Below, piece after piece: positions 45,161 through 57,577 of a stretch of DNA of 64,000 bases (within the stretch, counting starts at the first letter, position 1; each line of letters opens with the position of its first letter). The notes under the pieces are model-generated. The model saw only the letters and a program-made list of their open reading frames with translations, made no database searches and had not been told where the DNA came from. A program made the translations under genes and the position numbers. The stretch lies in NCBI GenBank assembly GCA_027491735.1, contig JAOZGP010000023.1, forward strand, positions 1-64,000, read 5' to 3'. This stretch comes from Thermoproteota archaeon. Its GTDB lineage: Archaea; Korarchaeota; Korarchaeia; Korarchaeales; Korarchaeaceae.

Positions 45161-46784
45161 TCAAGACCTCTGACGGCTGGGTTCTTTCATCCGGCTCTTG
45201 AAGATCTCTCTGATCCTCTCCAGGGTGTCCGCCTCATCCGGGGACTTGTCATTCCTTATCCTGACTATTCTGGCGAACCTGAGGGCGAAGCCGCTCCTGT
45301 ACTTCGGACTCCTCTGAATCTCGTTGAAGGCCACCTCGACCACGATCTCCGGCCTGACCCTGATGATCCCGTCGGCCCTCTCCACGGCTATCGACTTCAG
45401 CTTCTCGGTCATCCACTCGAACTCCTCGTCGCTCAGACCCTTGAACGTCTTTCCGACGACCTCAAATCCGTCATCTGCTCTGGCTGCAAGGTAATAGTCG
45501 CTGAACCACCTGTGTCTTCTCCCGTAACCCCTCTCCGCCGCCACCACAACGAGATCCAGCGTGTCCGTGTGCTTGAACTTCAACCAGTGCCTCCCCCTGG
45601 TGCCGGGGAGATAGGGGGATCTAAGGTCCTTGAGAATCACCCCCTCGTGTCCTTCCCTCACAGCTCGGCTGAAGAAATCCCTTGCCTCCTCAGAGCTCTC
45701 CGTCACGATGCAGGGGATCGACCTCACGCAGTCATCATCGAGCATCTCAATCAGGTCTTCCAGAACCCTCCTTCTCTCAACGTAAGCCCTATCCACAAGG
45801 ATCTTCTCACCCACGAGAAGGACGTCGAACAGGTAGAGCCTCAGGGGTATCTCCTCCATAAGGCCGTCATCCGGACGGGACCTCCTGAACCTCCTCATGA
45901 GGACTTGGAAGGGCAGGGGGGCTCTCCCTCTCCGCTATGAGCTCCCCCTCCAACACCGCCCTGCTGAACCTAAGCCCTGCGATCTCAGGCACCATCCTCG
46001 TAACGTCGGACATCCTTCTGCTGAACACCCTAACCCTCTCCCCGTTTGAATGGACCTGAACCCTCACACCATCCAGCTTGTACTCGAGGGCGCACCTCCC
46101 GAGCTCCCTCAGCGCCTCGTCCAGGCCACGAGCCGTCTGAGCCAGCATGGGTCTGACGAGCCTGAAGGGCACTAGCTTGACCCCAAGGATCTCCTCTCTG
46201 CTCATCTTCAGGATGGAGTAAGGCTCTCCAACGAGCATCGTGGCTCTGATCACGGCCTCCTTGGGGAGCCCTCTGGCCTCCGCCACAGCCTCCAGCAGGA
46301 GGCCCTCGTTCAGGCCTAGCCTCGTCTCCCCCACCAGGGCGTTTGTGAGGAGCCACACCTCATCCGAACCCAGCGAGGATAACAGCGATCTGAGGATCTC
46401 CTTCTTTCTTCTCCTGGATCCTCGACCGCTGATCTCAGAAATCCTCTCGAGCTGCCTGTACACCTCATTAACCGTCTGTTCCTCCTTGAACAGGGATGTC
46501 TGCCTCTTGGCCGATCTCATGAGGCGGCTCACGGCCTCGCCCAGGTCCACGCCCTCTGCCCTTCCCTTCCCGGAGAGCTCTTCAGCGACCTTGAGGATAG
46601 TGGACCAGGAGACGTCAAGCCTCCTCCCATCCTTGAAGACCTTGCCCGTCAGGATGAGGGCAGCCTTCTCGGCCTCTTCCGAGTCAAGCTCCCTCATCAA
46701 CGAGGCCAGGAGGAGGATCTTCTCCCTCCTGGATCTGGTGGACGCGATCTTTCTGGCAAGCCTCGAGAGCTCAGAGAACATCAT
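45161..46784 (-). pseudogene. lig: ATP-dependent DNA ligase split into two ORFs (45867-46784 and 45161-45898) by a single frameshift
   Basis: PMLA, EYKLDGVRVQVH, FSR, EGEL in the first ORF; FDVL, EGVILK, Y.PG.RG..WLK.K, DLVV, R.A.R.DK in the second. PLPFQVLMRR reads through if the G6 run at 45916-45921 is G5. Confidence 0.85.
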
Positions 46785-50578: not shown

Positions 50579-51244
50579 TGAGGTATCGCCTTCCTCACAA
50601 AAATAACTTTTCTGCAGGACACGGTGGTCGATCGTTCCACTCGCTCCTCCAGACCTCCATCAATCTGCGGACGTCGACAAACCTTGGAGATTCATGAGAG
50701 CATCTACCCAGGCTCGAGTTGCGATCTAAGGAGATGTGGGGTGAGAAATTGGAAGAACGAGAGAAGAGCGAACACCACACCGGATGACCTTCCATCACCA
50801 TCCTGGGACGCTCTGTCCCAGGCTTAGAACAGGACGTGGGGCTTCGTTAACCTGTTGTCGGTGAGATAGAAGCACAGAAGTAATCGGTTCTCCTTCCCCA
50901 CAGCTGATACTCGAAGTGCCCTCATCACTTCGCTCTGGAGAGCATAAAGTCCTCGCTTTCCTTTTTATGAAGCTTTTCGAGAGGTTGTTTATTTCCATCC
51001 TTCCAGTAGGCGGCCCTATGATTTTCAATCCTTTCAACTGTTCTCAAGCCTCCCTTCGGCCTCCTTACCTCCACGACCTCATCTCACTCCGAGAGGATTT
51101 CGGCGATTCTCGTCCCTTGAGGGTGGACAGAAAGTTGTTTAATCAAGTCATGATTTAGATGCATGAGTTAGTACCTGAGCAAGGATTTAATCCCTCGTCG
51201 TGCTGGCGTCCACGTTAAGGGGCGGAAGTTCGCTATGAATCCGG

Positions 51245-53275
51245 GTGTGGGATATGGGAGGGGACGTCCTTCTGCATGGAGACGTTTATGCCTGCCTTGA
51301 TCATCTGGAGGATGATTCGATCGCCGTGGCTGTGACCTCCCCGCCCTACTGGAGACAGAGGAATTACAGATTTGAGGGACAGATCGGACAGGAGAAGACG
51401 CCTGAGGAGTACATCGGTCGGTTGGTGAAGGTATACAGCAAGCTTCGCCGGAAGCTCAGAAGGGATGGCGTCTTCTTCCTCAACATCGGAGATAAATACC
51501 TGAATCGATATGGTAAGTCTCATCTCCTGCAGATCCCGTACAGAGTGGCACATCACATGGTGAGGGATGGTTGGCGCCTAGAAGATATAATTATATGGTA
51601 TAAACCGAACCACATGCCCTCCCCGGTCAGGGACAGGTTCACGAACACGTACGAGCCCGTGCTGGTTCTGACGAGGGGCGAGAGTAACATATACAAGAAT
51701 GGATATCCGAGGGTGGTGGAGATACCTCTGCAGCGGACCCCGTGGAGACACACAGCGGTGTACCCCGAAGGTCTGGTGGTGGAGATGCTGAAACGTGTGA
51801 AGTTGGAGGACGGAGATATAGTACTGGATCCCTTCGCAGGAACTGGGACCACTGCTGTGGCTGTGAACAGGGTGAGGAACAGCCCTTACGCCAAGGAGAT
51901 CTACACGATAATGATCGAGAAGGGGGATGAGTTCGTGGACGTGATCAGGGAGAGGGCTAAAGTAAGGGCGGTCGTTCGGGTCGAGGACGTCGATTACGAA
52001 TGGCAGCCCGTTGAGGAGGAGAACCTTCCGGAATGCTTGAGGCCTACCCCGATGCTGAGGGACAGGTACGGAGAGACGTATATCGCTCGAGATCAGGAGG
52101 AGTTTCTATCCGCGTTGAAGGGGATCGCACTCAGAGAGTTCAAGGAGTTTCACAGGGAGGACGCGCTCTACTTCCTCGGGGTGAGGAGATGGGGTCTGGA
52201 CTCATTATATTACGTTCACGTCATATATAGATATGGATATGTTCTGAGGAACATGTTGGTGATATCCGATGGGAACAGCTGGTATCCTGTCTTCATGTTC
52301 GCACGGGATAGCACGAGGGTGGCGTACAGGTTCCACCTCGATAGGGTTAGGGTGAAGCCTAGGACGATGGAGAGGAGGGAATGGATGGAGGAGGAGTTCA
52401 TCGGCATGAGGGTGAGGGACACCTCAGGGAGGACATCTATTGAGGGTCGTGTGGTGAAGATCCTGGAGAAATATGCTGATGGTTTTCCAAAGCTGGTGGT
52501 GGTTCAATGGGGCAAAAAGGCGTCTGTGGAACTTGCCATTCATCCCGAGAAGGATGAGCTCCTGATGGAGGGCGTGAAGTTCCTTTGTCCGAGGTGTTAT
52601 TCCGAGTTGAAGGAGCCCTACGATCCGATAGGAGAAAACTCATGCCCTTCCTGCGGGCAGAGGTTGTGGACGAGCTTGGAGACGGTCCCCGTGGTGCAGG
52701 AACCTCGAGAGATATCCGAGGTTGTGAGGAAACTGGAGGATAACAAACACCACATGGGTCAGATTTTTAATATTAAGGAATTTGAAATAAAGAAAATTTC
52801 ATCATCAAGTAAGTTTTCCTCCTTGGAAAGGATCAACTGGGGGGCATCTCCCGGAGCGAGGAAGCTCATGCTCGGCGAATACTTCACAAAGATGCGCCTT
52901 TACAGAGTGAATCAACCTCTCGTCGCACAATATTTGATCTTACTGAGGAGGTCCAGGAACATGAGCATTCAGGACGTGGTAAGGAGGCTTCCGAGGAGGT
53001 ATCGTCACACAGTTGGTCATTGGTTCAGAAAGGACTTCGGCGGATCTATCCCAATACCCGAGGATATTGAAGTGATAGAGGAGATCCTCGGTGCTCGGGG
53101 CGGCCTGCTCAGGATTCTGAGGAGGACGGCCTTAAAACTTCAAACGGTCAGAGCATCGATCAAAGGTAAGAATCCGGGGGATTACATCAGGGGCAGAAGC
53201 GATGAGGAGCTGGTGAGGTTCCTCAGACTGTTGTATGCTCCATCACAGGGGAGCGCGTCGCGGTCGATGAGGTGA
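51245..53275 (+). CDS. Beta-class N4-C/N6-A DNA methyltransferase with long C-terminal extension (degenerate MTase fold, Zn ribbon, HTH)
   Basis: TSPPYW catalytic motif IV precedes LDPFAGTGTT motif I; IIW.KPN.MP.PV.DR...YE; CPRC...CPSC; XRE-like LR..RNMS..DV...HTVGHW. Confidence 0.85.
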   Translation: MWDMGGDVLLHGDVYACLDHLEDDSIAVAVTSPPYWRQRNYRFEGQIGQEKTPEEYIGRLVKVYSKLRRKLRRDGVFFLNIGDKYLNRYGKSHLLQIPYRVAHHMVRDGWRLEDIIIWYKPNHMPSPVRDRFTNTYEPVLVLTRGESNIYKNGYPRVVEIPLQRTPWRHTAVYPEGLVVEMLKRVKLEDGDIVLDPFAGTGTTAVAVNRVRNSPYAKEIYTIMIEKGDEFVDVIRERAKVRAVVRVEDVDYEWQPVEEENLPECLRPTPMLRDRYGETYIARDQEEFLSALKGIALREFKEFHREDALYFLGVRRWGLDSLYYVHVIYRYGYVLRNMLVISDGNSWYPVFMFARDSTRVAYRFHLDRVRVKPRTMERREWMEEEFIGMRVRDTSGRTSIEGRVVKILEKYADGFPKLVVVQWGKKASVELAIHPEKDELLMEGVKFLCPRCYSELKEPYDPIGENSCPSCGQRLWTSLETVPVVQEPREISEVVRKLEDNKHHMGQIFNIKEFEIKKISSSSKFSSLERINWGASPGARKLMLGEYFTKMRLYRVNQPLVAQYLILLRRSRNMSIQDVVRRLPRRYRHTVGHWFRKDFGGSIPIPEDIEVIEEILGARGGLLRILRRTALKLQTVRASIKGKNPGDYIRGRSDEELVRFLRLLYAPSQGSASRSMR

Positions 53276-53284
53276 GGGGATCGC

Positions 53285-53536
53285 GTGTGGAGGGAGGAGT
53301 GTGTAAACAGGGAAGCAGATGTAGGGCTGGGCATCAGGTGGGCAGCAGCACAGTACGGCCTGAACTTCATTCACGTGAGGTGGGAAAGCTTCGACTTCGT
53401 AATACCAAAGTATAGATATGGTGAAGAACCCGTAAGGAGGTTCCTGGAAACTCTTAGATCGAGTGAGTTCAAGGATCAGCTGAGCAGACTGCCGGGATAC
53501 AGGATCCCCGAGAACCTCGGAAGACGCATACTTTAG
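53285..53536 (+). pseudogene. C-terminal fragment of a PBP substrate-binding domain (MoeA-LysR/molybdate-regulator type)
   Basis: ADVGLGI..AA..YGL.FI....E.FD.VI.K...F.E.L.S.EF...L..LPGY; only about 80 aa, N-terminal part absent. Confidence 0.7.
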
Positions 53537-53834
53537 GATTCCTCGCTGCCTGTGCTGTGGAGTGGCGTTCTCATCGGAAGGCAGGGTATTCGAGGAAGGG
53601 CCTCTCAGAGGAAGTGAGAACAAGCGCACGCTGAGCAAGGCTTCATTCGATGTGCTCCCCAATCTTCAGCACGCGAGCTGAAGGTGGATAGCGTCTCTCT
53701 AGGTCCGTGACCAGCTAAGAACCTTTTTCTTGGACTGGGCAGAGCATGTTGTCGTGCGAGAGACATCAAACGCATATCTCATTGCTTCGATGACTTCCGC
53801 TGCTGGAGGGAAATGTTTTGTGGGGACAGCGACC

Positions 53835-54503
53835 TCAGCTGGCCTCAGCACTGACCTCTAATCCGGGGATCCTGACCCTACTGTAGACGTGATCGAGCGC
53901 CTTCAGGGATGCTGATATCCAGATCAGGTAGATGAGACCCGTGAGGAGGTAGACCTGAAGAGGCTTGAACGTCTGAGCTGCTATGCTCTTCGACACGGTG
54001 GTGAGCTCCCTCAGTCCTATCACTATGAGGGCCGAGGTGCTCAGCCCAAGGGAGACGTACTCGTTTGTCCACGAGGGTATCACTACCCTGAAGGCCTGAG
54101 GCAATACCACATGCCTCAAGGTCTGCCAGAAGGTCATCCCGAGGGATTTGGCGGCGAGAAGCTGGTCCTTGAACACCGCCTCGATGGCTCCCTTGAAGTA
54201 ACCCTTCTGATAGGCCCCGCTGTTCAGCATGAGAGTCACCGTCCCGGCCGTGAAGGCATCCCATCTCACACCAGTCACCGTCGGCACAGAGAAGTAGAAC
54301 AGGAGAAGCTGAACTATAAGGGGGCTTCCTCGGAAGAACTCCACGTAAGCTCCTATCAAAGCCCTGAGAGCTCTACCACCGTAGACATCGCCCAGAGCGG
54401 AGAGCACGCCGAGGACGAGGCCCCCGCCTAGCCCGAGGAAGGTCATGACAAGAGTCATCTCAAAGCCCTGAACTATCAGGTAGGAGTAGTCGAGCAGGAA
54501 CAA
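53835..54503 (-). CDS. Polar amino-acid ABC transporter permease
   Basis: YVEFFRGSPLIVQL, LNSGAY, Q..AA.SLGM....LRHVVLPQA. Confidence 0.9.
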   Translation of the reverse strand: MFLLDYSYLIVQGFEMTLVMTFLGLGGGLVLGVLSALGDVYGGRALRALIGAYVEFFRGSPLIVQLLLFYFSVPTVTGVRWDAFTAGTVTLMLNSGAYQKGYFKGAIEAVFKDQLLAAKSLGMTFWQTLRHVVLPQAFRVVIPSWTNEYVSLGLSTSALIVIGLRELTTVSKSIAAQTFKPLQVYLLTGLIYLIWISASLKALDHVYSRVRIPGLEVSAEAS

Positions 54504-55241
54504 CTAGATCCCTCCCAGAAGCCTTGTCAGGAACCTCCTCGCTCTGGGAGTCTTTGGACTTCTGAGAAGCTGGTCTGGAGGGCCACTTTCCAGGATTTTG
54601 CCACCGTCCATAAAAGATATCTCGTCAGCCACCTCCTTGGCGAAGGCTATCTCGTGGGTGACGACCAGCATTGTGATCCCTCTCTTGGCGAGATCCCTCA
54701 TGACGTCTATGACCTCCCACGTGAGCTCTATGTCCAGGGAGGCGGTCGGCTCGTCAAAGAGTATCACGTCCGGATCCATGGCCAGAGCCCTGGCTATTCC
54801 CACCCTCTGCTGCTGACCTCCTGAGAGCTGAGCTGGATAGTAGTTGGCCCACTCCTCCATCCTCACAGCCTTCAGGGCCTCCATAGCCCTCTCGGTCGCC
54901 TCGTCATTGTTCACCTTCAGGACACATTTGAGACCGATCTTGACATTGTCCAAAGCCGTTAAGTGTCTAAAAAGACTTGGTTCCTGGAAGACAAAACCTA
55001 TCTTAGCTCTGATGATGTTGAGATCAAGTCCTGAGGTGTAGACGTCCCTACCCTCGAAGAAAATCTTCCCCCCGGTCGGAGGCTCCAGGAGGCCCATAAG
55101 CCTTAGGAAGGTGGACTTGCCCGAGCCGCTCGGTCCTATTATGACCTTGGTTTCCCCCTTTTCTATCTCAAAGTCTATCCCTCTGAGAACCTGAAGGTCG
55201 CCATAGCTCTTCCTGAGGTCCCTGCACTTGAGCACGCTCAA
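54504..55241 (-). CDS. Polar amino-acid ABC transporter ATP-binding protein (GlnQ-like)
   Basis: IGPSGSGKST, YPAQLSGGQQQRV.IARALAM.P..ILFDEPT, VTHE..FA..VAD. Confidence 0.92.
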   Translation of the reverse strand: MSVLKCRDLRKSYGDLQVLRGIDFEIEKGETKVIIGPSGSGKSTFLRLMGLLEPPTGGKIFFEGRDVYTSGLDLNIIRAKIGFVFQEPSLFRHLTALDNVKIGLKCVLKVNNDEATERAMEALKAVRMEEWANYYPAQLSGGQQQRVGIARALAMDPDVILFDEPTASLDIELTWEVIDVMRDLAKRGITMLVVTHEIAFAKEVADEISFMDGGKILESGPPDQLLRSPKTPRARRFLTRLLGGI

Positions 55242-55245
55242 GATC

Positions 55246-55902
55246 TCACCTCAGCCCATACTTGGTCTTCAGCTTGGAGCCCCACCTGTCGAGGTAGTTC
55301 GCTACGGGGAACGTCATAGCCACGTAGATCAGGGCTGCAAGCAGATATGGGTAGATGAAGGACCTAGTGGCTGCCCTCAATATGTCCGAGTACTTGGCGA
55401 GGTCTAGCACCCCCAGCACGAAGGAGTAGGAGGAGTCCTTTATCAGGAGGGCTATCTCGCTCCCCAGACCTGGGAGGGCCACAATGAACGCCTGCGGAAC
55501 TATTATGTGTCTGAACGCCTGGGCCCTCGTCATGCCGAGGGAGATGGCTGCCATCATCTGATCCCTCCCAACGCTGTTCATGGCACTCCTAAATATCTGA
55601 GATTGAAAAGCTCCGCTCCTCAGTCCGAGAGCCACGACAGCGCTGATGAATGGGTCTCTGAAGAGGGGAACTAAGCCTGCAAGTCCGAAGTGCAGGAAGA
55701 GCATTATCACAAGTACGGGAACTCCCCTCATGACCTTATCATATCCCTCGAGAACGGTCGACAGCTCGAAGGACCGCGAGAGCTGTCTGATCATGGCGAT
55801 CGGCATCCCCACAATGAAACCCATGGCGAAGGAGATGAGCGATATGGAGAGAGTTGTGGGAACTCCTTGAAGCAAAAAAATGAGATCTTGAGCGGAGATC
55901 AA
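55246..55902 (-). CDS. Polar amino-acid ABC transporter permease
   Basis: RG.P.LV, RS.A..S.IFR, Q..AA.SLGM...AFRHII.PQA, LIKDSS. Confidence 0.9.
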   Translation of the reverse strand: MISAQDLIFLLQGVPTTLSISLISFAMGFIVGMPIAMIRQLSRSFELSTVLEGYDKVMRGVPVLVIMLFLHFGLAGLVPLFRDPFISAVVALGLRSGAFQSQIFRSAMNSVGRDQMMAAISLGMTRAQAFRHIIVPQAFIVALPGLGSEIALLIKDSSYSFVLGVLDLAKYSDILRAATRSFIYPYLLAALIYVAMTFPVANYLDRWGSKLKTKYGLR

Positions 55903-55964
55903 AGTCTTTCCCTCTCATGACAGCGTTTCCTTCTCTCCCGAGATGGTGACAAGCGGACGGGTGA

Positions 55965-56810
55965 TCACCCACTTGTGACGTTCCACTTGGCCCTTATCTG
56001 GTCCACCTTGCCCTCAGCGAAGAGCTCAGCTAGAGCAGCGTCTATCTTCTGCACGAGGATCGGGGAGTCCTTGTTCGCTATGAAAGCCACAGGCCAGTAG
56101 GACCTGGCGTATATCACGGTCAGAGGGATCTTCTCCGTGGAGATCCACCAGGTGGTTATGGGGGTCTCGGCGTACACGGCATCTATCACACCCTTCTCCA
56201 GATCCTTGAGGGCCATTCCAAAGTCCTTGTACGACTTCACCTGGCTCGACTCGAGCGCTCCCTTCTTGACCAAGTTCAACAGTTCAGCTTCCTCGGTGGT
56301 CCCGCTTCCCGTCCCAACCACCATACCGTACTTGGCCACGTCCGATAGAGAGCTCAGCTTTGTTATCCCGAGCTGTTCCGCCTTAGCCTTCGTGGTGATC
56401 AGCTGAACCTGGGTCACGGTGTGCGGCATGGTGTAGAGTATGACTTTCATCCTCTCGGGGGTCACGGAGAACCCGCTCACGCCGAGGTCGACCTCCCCGT
56501 TCTTGACTGCTGATATTATGGCGTCGAAGTCCATTTGCTTCCACTTGACTTCGATCCCCAGCTTCTGAGCAACAGCATTCATGAGGTCGACCTCGTATCC
56601 GACTACCTCGTTGGTCTTAGGGTCTATGAACTCGAAAGGCGGCCAGTCGGGTGACGTGGCCACCACGATGTACCCCCTCTTCTGGACTGATTCCCAAGTC
56701 TGGCCTACAGCCTGAGTCTTTGGATTTGCGGCCGGATATATCAGGTATCCAACAGCGAAAGCGATGATAGCCACAATTACAAGACCTACAACAGACGATT
56801 TGGAGGTCAA
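55965..56810 (-). CDS. Polar amino-acid ABC transporter substrate-binding protein
   Basis: ATSPDWPPFE, G.EVDL, FD.II.A...G.VD, TPER, GTT. Confidence 0.9.
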   Translation of the reverse strand: MTSKSSVVGLVIVAIIAFAVGYLIYPAANPKTQAVGQTWESVQKRGYIVVATSPDWPPFEFIDPKTNEVVGYEVDLMNAVAQKLGIEVKWKQMDFDAIISAVKNGEVDLGVSGFSVTPERMKVILYTMPHTVTQVQLITTKAKAEQLGITKLSSLSDVAKYGMVVGTGSGTTEEAELLNLVKKGALESSQVKSYKDFGMALKDLEKGVIDAVYAETPITTWWISTEKIPLTVIYARSYWPVAFIANKDSPILVQKIDAALAELFAEGKVDQIRAKWNVTSG

Positions 56811-56899: not shown

Positions 56900-57577
56900 T
56901 TAATGTCCACTGGGCCTGAGACTTCTCCTGGTAGTCAGTATGAGGTCCTCCAGCAACTTGTAGGCTGTAGAGGCATCACTCCTGTCGAATATGAGCACCG
57001 TGTCCTTGTAGCAAGAGATGACCTGCGTGACGTTTATTCCATTAGACGAGAGGGTGTAGAGCACCAGCTCGAGAACTCCAGGGGTGACTACTATGTCCTC
57101 CGGGCTCACCATGACTAAGGCCGTCTGATCGCTCAGCGTACTCACGATGAGCCTCTTGGGAAAGATAGACAGGATCCTGGGAAGCAGTTCGCTCGCCACC
57201 ACTATGGAGAAGGTGTCCAATCCTTGGGTCATCTGAAAGAACCTGGCTCTCTCCATCAGACCGATGAGGTCGTCGATCCTCTGCTCCACAGCTGATCTCC
57301 TAACTGTGATCACTCCCAGATCTGTTTGAAGCTCTAGGACGCTCTCGGCTATGACTCTCCTGATCCTCTCCTCGATCTTACCTTTTCTCCTGATATCCGA
57401 GCTGAACCTTATCAGAGCCATCTTTATGGCTCCTACTGAGGCTCTAATCCCCATGTTGTTCAGATCCTCCTGTATGAGCCTGGACAGGGCACTGTAGTTT
57501 ATAACCCCATGCGCCAAGCAGTCCCTGATGGCGGGCCTGGTGAGCACGACTTCTCGGACGTGTTTCGAGACGCTCAT
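56900..57577 (-). CDS. Conserved archaeal ACT-domain-containing protein
   Basis: P.IRDCL..GVINYSALSR..., AIKMAL.R, TPGV, GIN....ISCY.DT. Confidence 0.75.
   Translation of the reverse strand: MSVSKHVREVVLTRPAIRDCLAHGVINYSALSRLIQEDLNNMGIRASVGAIKMALIRFSSDIRRKGKIEERIRRVIAESVLELQTDLGVITVRRSAVEQRIDDLIGLMERARFFQMTQGLDTFSIVVASELLPRILSIFPKRLIVSTLSDQTALVMVSPEDIVVTPGVLELVLYTLSSNGINVTQVISCYKDTVLIFDRSDASTAYKLLEDLILTTRRSLRPSGH

Follow-up and report, generated by a model that had tools for sequence, protein, structure and literature searches.

According to the current view, class-β DNA and RNA amino-methyltransferases (CcrM through METTL3-METTL14) require two subunits, since the target-recognition domain (TRD) faces away from the active site of its own subunit; this two-subunit view rests on few structures. 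Among the described systems with one active and one dead unit are the class-β heterodimers METTL3-METTL14 and MTA1-MTA9, in which the dead paralogous unit aids substrate binding, and PRMT7, in which the same pseudo-dimer logic is realized within one chain (according to a passage of PMC10908127). For the class-β enzymes, a passage of the review PMC7544214 sets out a division of labour between a catalyzing and a recognizing subunit, which matches the picture of a pseudo-dimer. The present work concerns a DNA methyltransferase gene at positions 51245-53275 (+) of a 64,000-nucleotide stretch from a Thermoproteota archaeon of the Korarchaeaceae (assembly GCA_027491735.1, contig JAOZGP010000023.1, positions 1 to 64,000; the whole stretch is termed the window). 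Its product is probably a single-chain imitation of the obligate class-β dimer and, with respect to its history, a solitary, horizontally acquired methyltransferase of a two-gene Type II restriction-modification (R-M) family.

With the class-β homodimers (CcrM, M.PvuII, M.RsrI, M1.MboII, M1.HpyAVI, TTHA0409, N4CMT and the Mod subunit of M.EcoP15I), the protein shares the fold, the order of motif IV before motif I and a conserved phenylalanine (Phe132) equivalent to the "tenon" residue of their joint; the contact predicted between its two units lies in the same region of the fold. Unlike in these homodimers, both units reside in one chain and each is devoid of what its counterpart contributes: a TRD is missing from the active unit, whereas the putative recognizing unit has neither motif IV nor the S-adenosylmethionine (AdoMet)-binding lobe nor the tenon loop. 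METTL14 and MTA9 differ in being separate chains with whole folds, whereas half a dead fold within a prokaryotic R-M enzyme is present here; PRMT7, the closest analogue in logic, belongs to another methyltransferase class, acts on protein and carries its dead copy as a whole domain. Relatives of 470-570 residues with the motif order IV-VIII, TRD, X, I-III (below: ordinary-order enzymes) contain the same TRD module (β-barrel, Zn ribbon, ASPxGR loop, helix-turn-helix (HTH), GxNPGD), but have it placed within their only core, which is complete, after motif VIII and before motif X, and possess no second lobe.

A single-chain or pseudo-dimeric DNA methyltransferase was not found described in full-text searches of the literature, judged by listings and abstracts apart from the papers cited here (REBASE and supplements lay outside the search), and the consulted passages of the class-β review PMC7544214 and of the topology preprint 10.1101/2023.12.13.571470 make no mention of tandem or half-domain forms. 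The initial annotation of the window had proposed an undescribed architecture; this stands insofar as the architecture was not found in print, whereas the family is already catalogued (PADLOC; sources call it DNA methyltransferase) and its TRD is common property of the 470-570-residue enzymes.

Domain make-up of the methyltransferase chain

The open reading frame (ORF) is real and open throughout its 676 codons from GTG 51245; the in-frame ATG 51254 (673 residues) is the probable start codon, because the family consensus begins with MxxDIILHGDV and an identical database entry comprises 673 residues. The following features are distinguished along the chain (evidence in brackets):

51245-53275 (+): methyltransferase ORF (ORF call; 673-residue database entry; PADLOC MTase_II PDLC03303 over residues 9-666)
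51266-51673 (+): active catalytic lobe, motifs IV-VIII, residues 8-143 (Pfam, pattern search, Foldseek)
51338-51349 (+): SPPY (pattern search)
51638-51640 (+): codon of Phe132, the putative tenon (aligns with Tyr122 of M1.HpyAVI)
51674-51748 (+): 25-residue linker at the place of a TRD, residues 144-168 (colinear with the TRD-less M1.HpyAVI)
51749-51979 (+): AdoMet-binding lobe, motifs X and I-III, residues 169-245, with FAGTG at 51833-51847 (Pfam, pattern search)
51980-52069 (+): ordered linker between the pseudo-subunits, residues 246-275 (predicted local distance difference test score (pLDDT) of 89-95 in blocks 241-270; residues 256-258 in the predicted interface)
52070-52309 (+): N', putative degenerate copy of the catalytic lobe without motif IV, residues 276-355, predicted to receive Phe132 (AlphaFold2, Foldseek, VIA, hhalign)
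52310-53164 (+): target-recognition module, residues 356-640 (TRD position in the ordinary-order family; HTH with Z 8.6; invariant columns)
52409-52537 (+): β-barrel of the TRD
52577-52669 (+): Zn ribbon of the TRD
52808-52906 (+): invariant loop of low model confidence, NWGASPGAR region (pLDDT 29-44)
52907-53119 (+): XRE-type HTH (VIA Z 8.6)
53165-53272 (+): GKNPGD (53165-53182) and putative relic of the motif-X helix (53195-53272) (hhalign; residues 642-647 in the predicted interface)

Residues 8-245 constitute a complete class-β amino-methyltransferase core with SPPY and FAGTG. The Pfam family N6_N4_Mtase (PF01555) matched residues 28-235 (E 3.4e-34; 119.2 bits versus a cut-off of 26.7), the closest solved sequences were all of class β (TTHA0409, M.PvuII, N4CMT, CcrM, M1.HpyAVI), and Foldseek related the fold of the core to CcrM, N4CMT and M.PvuII at E 1e-11 to 1e-13 (CcrM: E 8.5e-14). 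A pattern search of the ORF returned one SPPY (residue 32), one FxGxG (FAGTG, residue 197) and two CxxC (residues 448 and 467); motif IV is thus N-terminal to motif I, as in class β. Only 25 residues separate motif VIII (YEPVLVLTR) from motif X (HTAVYPEGL), the usual place of a class-β TRD, and in this respect the active core departs from the class-β pattern, in which motif VIII of a core is followed by the TRD before its motifs X and I. Residues 8-245 would be expected to bind AdoMet and to catalyze methyl transfer with no TRD of their own. The methylated base is probably cytosine at N4, because motif IV is SPPY: a passage of PMC10406627 gives SPPY as the motif of the N4-cytosine enzyme N4CMT and DPPY as that of CcrM, and one source also names an ordinary-order relative cytosine-N4-specific.

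The C-terminal 421 residues matched no Pfam or NCBIfam family above threshold (Zn-ribbon families reached E 0.05-1 only), and neither a second SPPY nor a second FxGxG was present in the ORF according to the pattern search. They are related to the ordinary-order enzymes, for which 1291 matches were obtained in archaea and bacteria (listed members mostly of 470-570 residues). Proteins of 533-566 residues in three genomes of the same taxonomic family match residues 9-147 of the query, then 348-660 and then 159-242; one of them (locus L010, 1441-3042; 99% identity to a protein assigned by one source to Candidatus Korarchaeum sp.) shows successively ITSPPYW...YEPVLLFVR, HYFNLEEV, a β-rich stretch, CPLC...CPEC, ASPAGR, the HTH, GRNPGDVW and HFSVFP...DPFAGSGT. 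Identity between these relatives and the ORF amounts to 29-35% in the TRD module and 44-49% in the catalytic lobe. Alignment by hhalign of the C-half profile with a profile of 113 ordinary-order proteins resulted in one colinear match (probability 100, E 1.9e-53) from C-half positions 21-414 to positions 57-480 of 533, which takes in N', the TRD and the last helix; C-half positions 387-414 align therein with the motif-X helix of the ordinary-order family (positions 442-480). The entire C-half is accounted for by this homology, and the nuclease is a separate gene in the relatives; no nuclease family was matched by the chain in Pfam or NCBIfam, and none appeared among the fold matches listed for the undivided model of the C-half. 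In our reading of the sequence, the C-half would represent an ordinary-order class-β enzyme that lacks motif IV and stops before motif I, i.e. half a dead fold plus a TRD.

The structural models point in the same direction. Both the full-length AlphaFold2 model (116-row alignment; mean pLDDT 80.4, predicted template modelling score (pTM) 0.82) and that of the C-half alone (pLDDT 79.1, pTM 0.75) were inspected; in the AlphaFold2 models, residues 276-355 adopt the succession strand, helices, strand, helix, strand, strand, which is the order of the IV-VIII lobe (residues 26-143). The best PDB matches of the C-half model in Foldseek were METTL14 chains (E ~0.008, probability 0.97-0.99). VIA, which is independent of Foldseek, returned for the C-half the methyltransferases MboIIA, CcrM, N4CMT, M.BceJIV, M1.HpyAVI and M.PvuII (Z 6.7-7.1; root-mean-square deviation (rmsd) 3.2-3.7; 119-127 aligned residues), each match spanning the start and the very end of the C-half model; this supports the relationship and is no proof of it. 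The second unit is not a complete seven-stranded fold: it consists of four strands with helices (residues 276-355) and the relic motif-X helix, the AdoMet lobe is gone from it, and the chain ends where motif I would begin.

With respect to the recognition module, residues 356-646 occupy the position of the TRD in ordinary-order class-β enzymes, and the borders YxFxLD and GKNPGD flank the TRD in these relatives too. The module is therefore not peculiar to the pseudo-dimer architecture, because it lies at the normal TRD place in the large family of 470-570-residue enzymes. Its XRE-type HTH (residues 555-625) was matched by VIA to C.AhdI (Z 8.6, rmsd 2.1, 64 aligned residues). The NWGASPGAR region is the most invariant stretch outside the core and has a pLDDT of 29-44 over blocks 511-550; a passage of PMC7544214 describes the postulated TRDs of class-β enzymes as disordered without DNA, and the modelled loop probably becomes ordered on DNA.

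The match with C.AhdI, a controller of R-M operons, raises the alternative that the HTH is a built-in, C-protein-like regulator of transcription of the R-M operon and that the target is recognized elsewhere; C.BclI, C.Esp1396I and C.Csp231I were listed as well, and some Type II methyltransferases carry a regulatory HTH. We regard this alternative as very unlikely: the HTH belongs to the module found at the TRD position of ordinary-order enzymes, in which there is no other TRD; the stretch that follows the HTH, Y586 to S601, is the most invariant one of the family; and solitary copies, in which no operon is left to be controlled, retain the HTH. A controlling role and a recognizing role would, moreover, not be exclusive.

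The methyltransferase family comprises 399 matches at E <=0.001; the 120 listed share 55-73% identity in the C-half and are mostly of 650-700 residues, and the family alignment comprised 115 of these and the window protein (the fragments P0006, P0027, P0060 and P0123 and the identical P0004 were left out). Its 110 invariant columns are spread over both halves. The mean identity to 34 close relatives was 74.9% for the live catalytic lobe, 57.5% for the AdoMet lobe, 60.7% for N' and 59.3% for the HTH, i.e. N' is conserved about as much as the AdoMet lobe. A distant sub-family (n = 23, ~33-39% identical) is built alike, with SPPY and the motif I FxGxG occurring once each, apart from one member in which a further FxGxG match is non-homologous. 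The CxxC pairs are kept in only four of these 23 members and both are absent from 19 (e.g. L054, L058, L066-L068, L071-L077); the zinc site thus appears to be dispensable, because these 19 members keep the overall architecture without it. A search for shorter forms gave 67 matches, mostly on contigs of a few kb or less and five of them labelled partial, which neither provide evidence for a stand-alone C-half gene nor exclude it.

Several particulars of the initial annotation are borne out by these data: the complete N-terminal β-class methyltransferase with almost no TRD (Pfam, SPPY, FAGTG, 25-residue stretch), each of SPPY and FxGxG occurring only once and hence missing from the second copy, the CPRC...CPSC pairs (two CxxC), the XRE-like HTH, and the YRFHLDRVRV and GKNPGD borders of the TRD, which are so placed in the ordinary-order relatives. 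The profile searches of each half that it had called for identified the N-half as PF01555 and the C-half as homologous to the ordinary-order family. Its claim of a decayed second methyltransferase core is supported by the profile comparison with the ordinary-order family and by the fold, not by plain sequence (see below); and instead of a dead methyltransferase fold over residues ~275-676, a catalytic lobe (V-VIII) with a relic motif-X helix was found, not the whole fold.

Predicted docking of the two halves

For the prediction of a complex, residues 1-255 and 256-676 were supplied as separate chains with their own family alignment, in three runs and with three controls. The interface score ipSAE (interaction prediction score from aligned errors) was 0.85 in all three runs versus 0.01 for the best control; 58 of 80 solved complexes and two of 110 mismatched pairs attained such a value, counts which hold only roughly here, because an own alignment was supplied. 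The runs agree in at least 93% of contacts, with a partner pLDDT of at least 78. Confident contacts connect residues 54-61, 89-106, 112-119 and 126-136 of the live lobe with residues 318-328, 333-346, 351-365 and 642-647 of the dead half; the interface elements of the prediction are thus helix E and the β6-β7 hairpin on both sides, plus GKNPGD. Phe132 contacts residues 336, 338, 351, 645 and 646 in the predicted complex and is aligned by profile with Tyr122 of M1.HpyAVI and with the phenylalanine of RRF in M.MboIIA. A passage of PMC10406627 describes a "mortise and tenon" joint as common to class-β dimers, with HpyAVI Tyr122, CcrM Phe130 and N4CMT Phe206 as the inserted residues, and CcrM Phe130 sits in an aromatic cage of the other monomer (passage of PMC6787082). 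The dead lobe is accordingly predicted to dock on the live lobe via the surface by which class-β dimers are formed; the complex model supports binding of the two halves and does not show it.

With regard to the CcrM-like packing for which the initial annotation had proposed a structural check, the models predict contact through the elements of the class-β dimer; the second fold is only half present and the predicted joint is one-sided. Its central idea, a division of labour hard-wired into one polypeptide, is preserved in the TRD-less active core, the dead lobe bearing the TRD and the predicted dimer-like packing; it has to be modified in that only half of the dead fold exists.

Based on these models, the following mechanism is proposed. 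Residues 276-676 would descend from a second ordinary-order enzyme (IV-VIII / TRD / X / I-III) shorn of motif IV and of the AdoMet lobe, and the dead catalytic lobe would serve as docking platform for the TRD with its β-barrel, Zn ribbon, invariant loop and XRE HTH. Docking would proceed via helix E and the β6-β7 hairpin of each lobe, with insertion of Phe132 of the live lobe into the dead one; in this arrangement, the TRD would be turned towards the active site, as is that of the second subunit in class-β homodimers. The chain may be active as a monomer, in which site reading would fall to the TRD, and base flipping and methylation to the TRD-less core. Computation establishes the domain content, the homology of the C-half, a partial similarity of fold, the restriction gene of the relatives and its lack in the window, and a context that resembles an insertion; docking geometry, monomeric action, origin, target base and target site are predicted or inferred.

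Alternatively, the enzyme might still be a homodimer or a higher oligomer, in which the contact of the N-terminal lobe with N' would be an additional intramolecular brace and no substitute for a partner subunit. Every solved class-β methyltransferase named in the available part of PMC7544214 is dimeric, and palindromic sites, as suggested by the MwoI/BglI/SfiI-like partners of the family (see below), need methylation of both strands. According to the model, however, the tenon residue and its surrounding surface are already occupied within the chain, and the TRD-less active core together with the dead lobe already provides one catalytic-plus-recognition surface per chain; persistence of an oligomer is therefore considered unlikely.

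The weight of the single-chain dimer reading is lessened by a number of observations. Plain sequence comparison does not reveal an internal repeat, and this candidate was rejected: BLASTP of residues 1-255 against 256-676 reproduced the alignment of the initial annotation without significance (E 0.6, 18% identity), and hhalign of residues 262-362 with the N-half profile reached E 0.053. The same residues aligned with the 533-residue ordinary-order family in the same register at E 0.002, which is weak, and the colinear match of the C-half was computed with -mact 0.1, so that the strong TRD match may have dragged it into N'. No Foldseek match of the C-half model was better than E 0.001, and VIA Z values of ~7 fall within the range stated as common for unrelated models. 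The interface between the N-terminal lobe and N' comes from structure predictors only; it is, furthermore, not symmetric, as hhalign places a gap of ~13 residues in N' at the place of the tenon loop, and the predicted joint is one-sided because N' lacks this loop.

On these grounds, residues 276-355 might be regarded as an unrelated small α/β scaffold, and the protein as a TRD-less methyltransferase core with a DNA-binding region, devoid of duplication and of dimer mimicry: the sequence similarity of N' to methyltransferase lobes is marginal, and a Z of ~7 and a Foldseek E of ~0.01 belong to the grey zone. An unrelated scaffold would, however, have to lie exactly at the place of the ordinary-order V-VIII lobe, in the same register and before the shared succession YxFxLD...TRD...GKNPGD; all six methyltransferases matched by VIA are class-β DNA methyltransferases, and the predicted interface uses equivalent elements of both lobes together with the homologue of a published tenon residue. 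We thus attach a low probability to this explanation and retain the single-chain imitation of a class-β dimer.

As to the origin of such a chain, a tandem duplication of an ordinary-order gene may have been followed by loss of the TRD from the first copy and of motif IV and the AdoMet lobe from the second; a fusion of two separate genes would have had the same outcome. The balance tips slightly towards the more far-reaching proposal that the family is a natural single-chain class-β dimer in which, after tandem duplication, each copy lost exactly what the other supplies. If true, the catalytic site would work only with a TRD given "in trans" by a pseudo-subunit, which would be an evolutionary proof of the division-of-labour model; a widespread family with one active site and one TRD on different pseudo-subunits would test the two-subunit view independently and would offer a compact monomeric scaffold for specificity engineering. 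A duplication route has been proposed for the circular permutation of methyltransferases, and the succession of IV-VIII, X, I-III, dead V-VIII, TRD and X relic would then represent a surviving intermediate of this route. The family would illustrate how such enzymes are rebuilt by duplication and reciprocal loss.

Restriction-enzyme partner in the relatives

The initial annotation had taken the gene for an orphan, possibly regulatory methyltransferase; for the family as a whole, this does not hold. The PADLOC model MTase_II PDLC03303 (Type II methyltransferase) covers the protein over its full length (E 6.1e-238; residues 9-666 on positions 6-661 of 668), and the search for full-length homologues and neighbourhoods that had been recommended disclosed a partner gene. 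In a scan that included one genome per species, 187 matches to the pattern were obtained; 106 of these were confirmed and 80 kept, corresponding to 78 distinct loci in many archaeal and bacterial phyla. Clustering of the flanking ORFs revealed a conserved neighbour gene at 45 of the 78 loci, in 44 of them directly upstream on the same strand and often overlapping the methyltransferase start, in L023 directly downstream. Some neighbours are broken or short (two ORFs in L034 and L059; 112 residues in L064, 152 in L068; several others truncated at contig borders). Among the remaining 33 loci, 22 had at least 800 nt of upstream sequence and no neighbour gene, with remnants of it at two (L061, L076), and 11 had too little upstream sequence.

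An alignment of 36 neighbours revealed invariant E, P..G.D and D.K.T columns, i.e. the PD-(D/E)XK signature, and the PADLOC model REase_II PDLC03522 matched the neighbour over its full length at E 3.5e-81 for L015 and at 7.8e-14 for L058. In Pfam, all matches of the 36 neighbours were below cut-off (RestrictionSfiI in eight, best E 0.0015; BglI in three, best E 0.011); the nearest ESM Atlas clusters were the MwoI, BglI and SfiI families (scores 0.96-0.91), which is a lead only. The neighbour profile found among PDB sequences only a designed binder (E 0.052), and NCBIfam gave nothing credible. The relatives' systems hence resemble Type II systems of the MwoI/BglI/SfiI type in the P..G.D...D.K signature of the neighbour, its REase_II match and its Atlas look-alikes, and differ from them in the missing Pfam match at cut-off and, for the window copy, in the missing endonuclease. 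Judged by sequence, the methyltransferase is a member of a widespread two-gene Type II R-M family. Enzymes of the MwoI/BglI/SfiI type cut interrupted palindromes (abstracts of PMC3458533 and PMC548270), and the recognition site of the methyltransferase may resemble those of such partners.

P0223, a 720-residue member of the ordinary-order family, bears a fused Pfam MwoI restriction domain; because of this fusion, both methyltransferase architectures may serve MwoI-like endonucleases. Another record concerns genome G022 (contig C15, 1411-2145), where an 89-residue C-terminal fragment of the methyltransferase (query residues 600-668) adjoins an 85-residue fragment of the restriction enzyme with an internal TAA; this genome also holds an intact solitary methyltransferase on another contig.

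The solitary copy of the window

A homologue of the endonuclease was absent from the window and from the rest of the genome, whose completeness of 87.85% leaves this absence unproven, and the search was positive in three of three control genomes; the missing adjacent endonuclease reported in the initial annotation is in accordance with this. Among 41 related genomes, the endonuclease profile detected only two fragments, in G025 and G022. In lacking a cognate endonuclease in this incomplete genome, the copy is comparable to CcrM-type orphans; it is unlike them in not residing at a conserved vertical locus. The gene is missing from the syntenic site of the same-genus genome G001, which has its copy at another locus, and the gap between guaA and the adenosine triphosphate-binding cassette (ABC) permease gene measures 559 bp in G001 versus 3230 bp in the window (50614 to 53844), with unrelated intervening DNA and flanks (guaA and the end of the ABC permease gene) of 83% DNA identity each. 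The guanine-plus-cytosine (GC) content of the segment is 0.51-0.53 versus 0.56-0.60 in most flanking windows. Two further features are thus assigned:

50615-53843 (no strand): strain-specific 3.2-kb segment between guaA and the ABC-transporter permease gene, with the methyltransferase and the PBP_like fragment (synteny versus G001, GC)
53276-53536 (+): C-terminal PBP_like fragment, 86 codons from stop to stop, starting after the methyltransferase stop (PF12727, E 1.3e-13, profile positions 142-193 of 193)

The PBP_like fragment is 44% and 42% identical to the PBP_like genes of two same-genus genomes. Insertion of the methyltransferase into a host PBP_like gene was considered and rejected, as no further piece is present upstream and the identity to the same-genus genes is only 42-44%; from its sequence we read the fragment as DNA that may have arrived with the methyltransferase or as a remnant, rather than as part of a disrupted host gene. 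Neither non-coding flank of the methyltransferase (5' or 3') matched any related locus, and no RNA families or tRNAs were found beside the gene. An 18-nt imperfect direct repeat (51175-51192 / 53631-53648; 15 identical positions out of 18, with a 10-mer in common) lies on either side of the methyltransferase and the PBP_like fragment; it was given no weight, because a 10-mer repeat in 3.7 kb is expected several times by chance (own estimate).

The phylogeny was calculated with FastTree from 65 rows (59 different), i.e. the window, 57 of the 78 loci and seven relatives; ORFs below 600 residues and L007 (stop codon) were left out, six relatives appear twice, being identical to rows of the other collection, and the distant sub-family (23 rows) served for rooting. 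The window methyltransferase falls into a nine-row set (support 98), in which seven rows, mostly bacterial and labelled Hippea, Parcubacteria, Aquificales, Deltaproteobacteria, WOR-3, Minisyncoccia and uncultured bacterium, are linked with the restriction gene; the solitary rows of this set are the window and an Archaeoglobus record. The best identity of the window protein, 71%, is to the Hippea record. The copies of the window's own taxonomic family, including that of G001, belong to a different, almost wholly solitary clade with mostly Thermoproteota labels (L030, L031, L033, L035, L036, L045-L049 and L083, with the WOR-3 loci L042 and L044 nested and two Nitrososphaerota records). A restriction gene was found neither near the copies of this clade nor in the related genomes searched, and these copies may represent genuine orphan methylases that arose by domestication. 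On the tree, the label linked or solitary changes at least nine times, with seven changes forced by well-supported branches; since kin share labels, these counts indicate repeated change and not a rate. The solitary state supposed in the initial annotation hence applies to the window copy and to the mostly archaeal (Thermoproteota) clade, and not to the rest of the family. On the evidence of phylogeny and synteny, the window copy is most plausibly an R-M methylase that was acquired horizontally and is solitary, rather than an ancestral regulator.

Alternatively, such a copy could be a non-functional remnant of an R-M system in decay that is turning into a pseudogene. The restriction gene is missing, the methyltransferase adjoins a gene fragment in a variable segment, and decayed fragments of both genes occur among relatives (G022, G025). 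Among the 285 columns with a conservation of at least 90%, the window protein deviates from the consensus in 13 (family median seven; rank 100 of 116), and its end branch is longer than those of the nearest rows (0.37 versus 0.04-0.23), which may mean some relaxation of constraint after loss of the restriction gene. Nevertheless, 676 codons are open, every invariant family column is kept, and all 13 departures are conservative; the protein thus looks intact, perhaps under slightly relaxed constraint. As solitary copies also persist intact over a large, mostly Thermoproteota clade, decay towards a pseudogene is given little credence, and the reading as a solitary methyltransferase acquired from an R-M system is preferred.

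Two observations concern other genes of the window. The ATP-dependent DNA ligase gene at 45161-46784 (-) seems to be distributed over two ORFs that overlap and differ in frame: ORF 45867-46784 stops shortly past the KxDG adenylation motif and ORF 45161-45898 continues the protein, which would be explained by a frameshift near 45870-45898 or by an assembly error of the metagenome-assembled genome. Downstream of the strain-specific segment, positions 53835-56810 (-) contain an amino-acid ABC transporter operon (two permeases, ATPase, binding protein; named by the look of the translations), the permease gene end of which is conserved in G001, followed by a 225-residue ORF at 56900-57577 (-).

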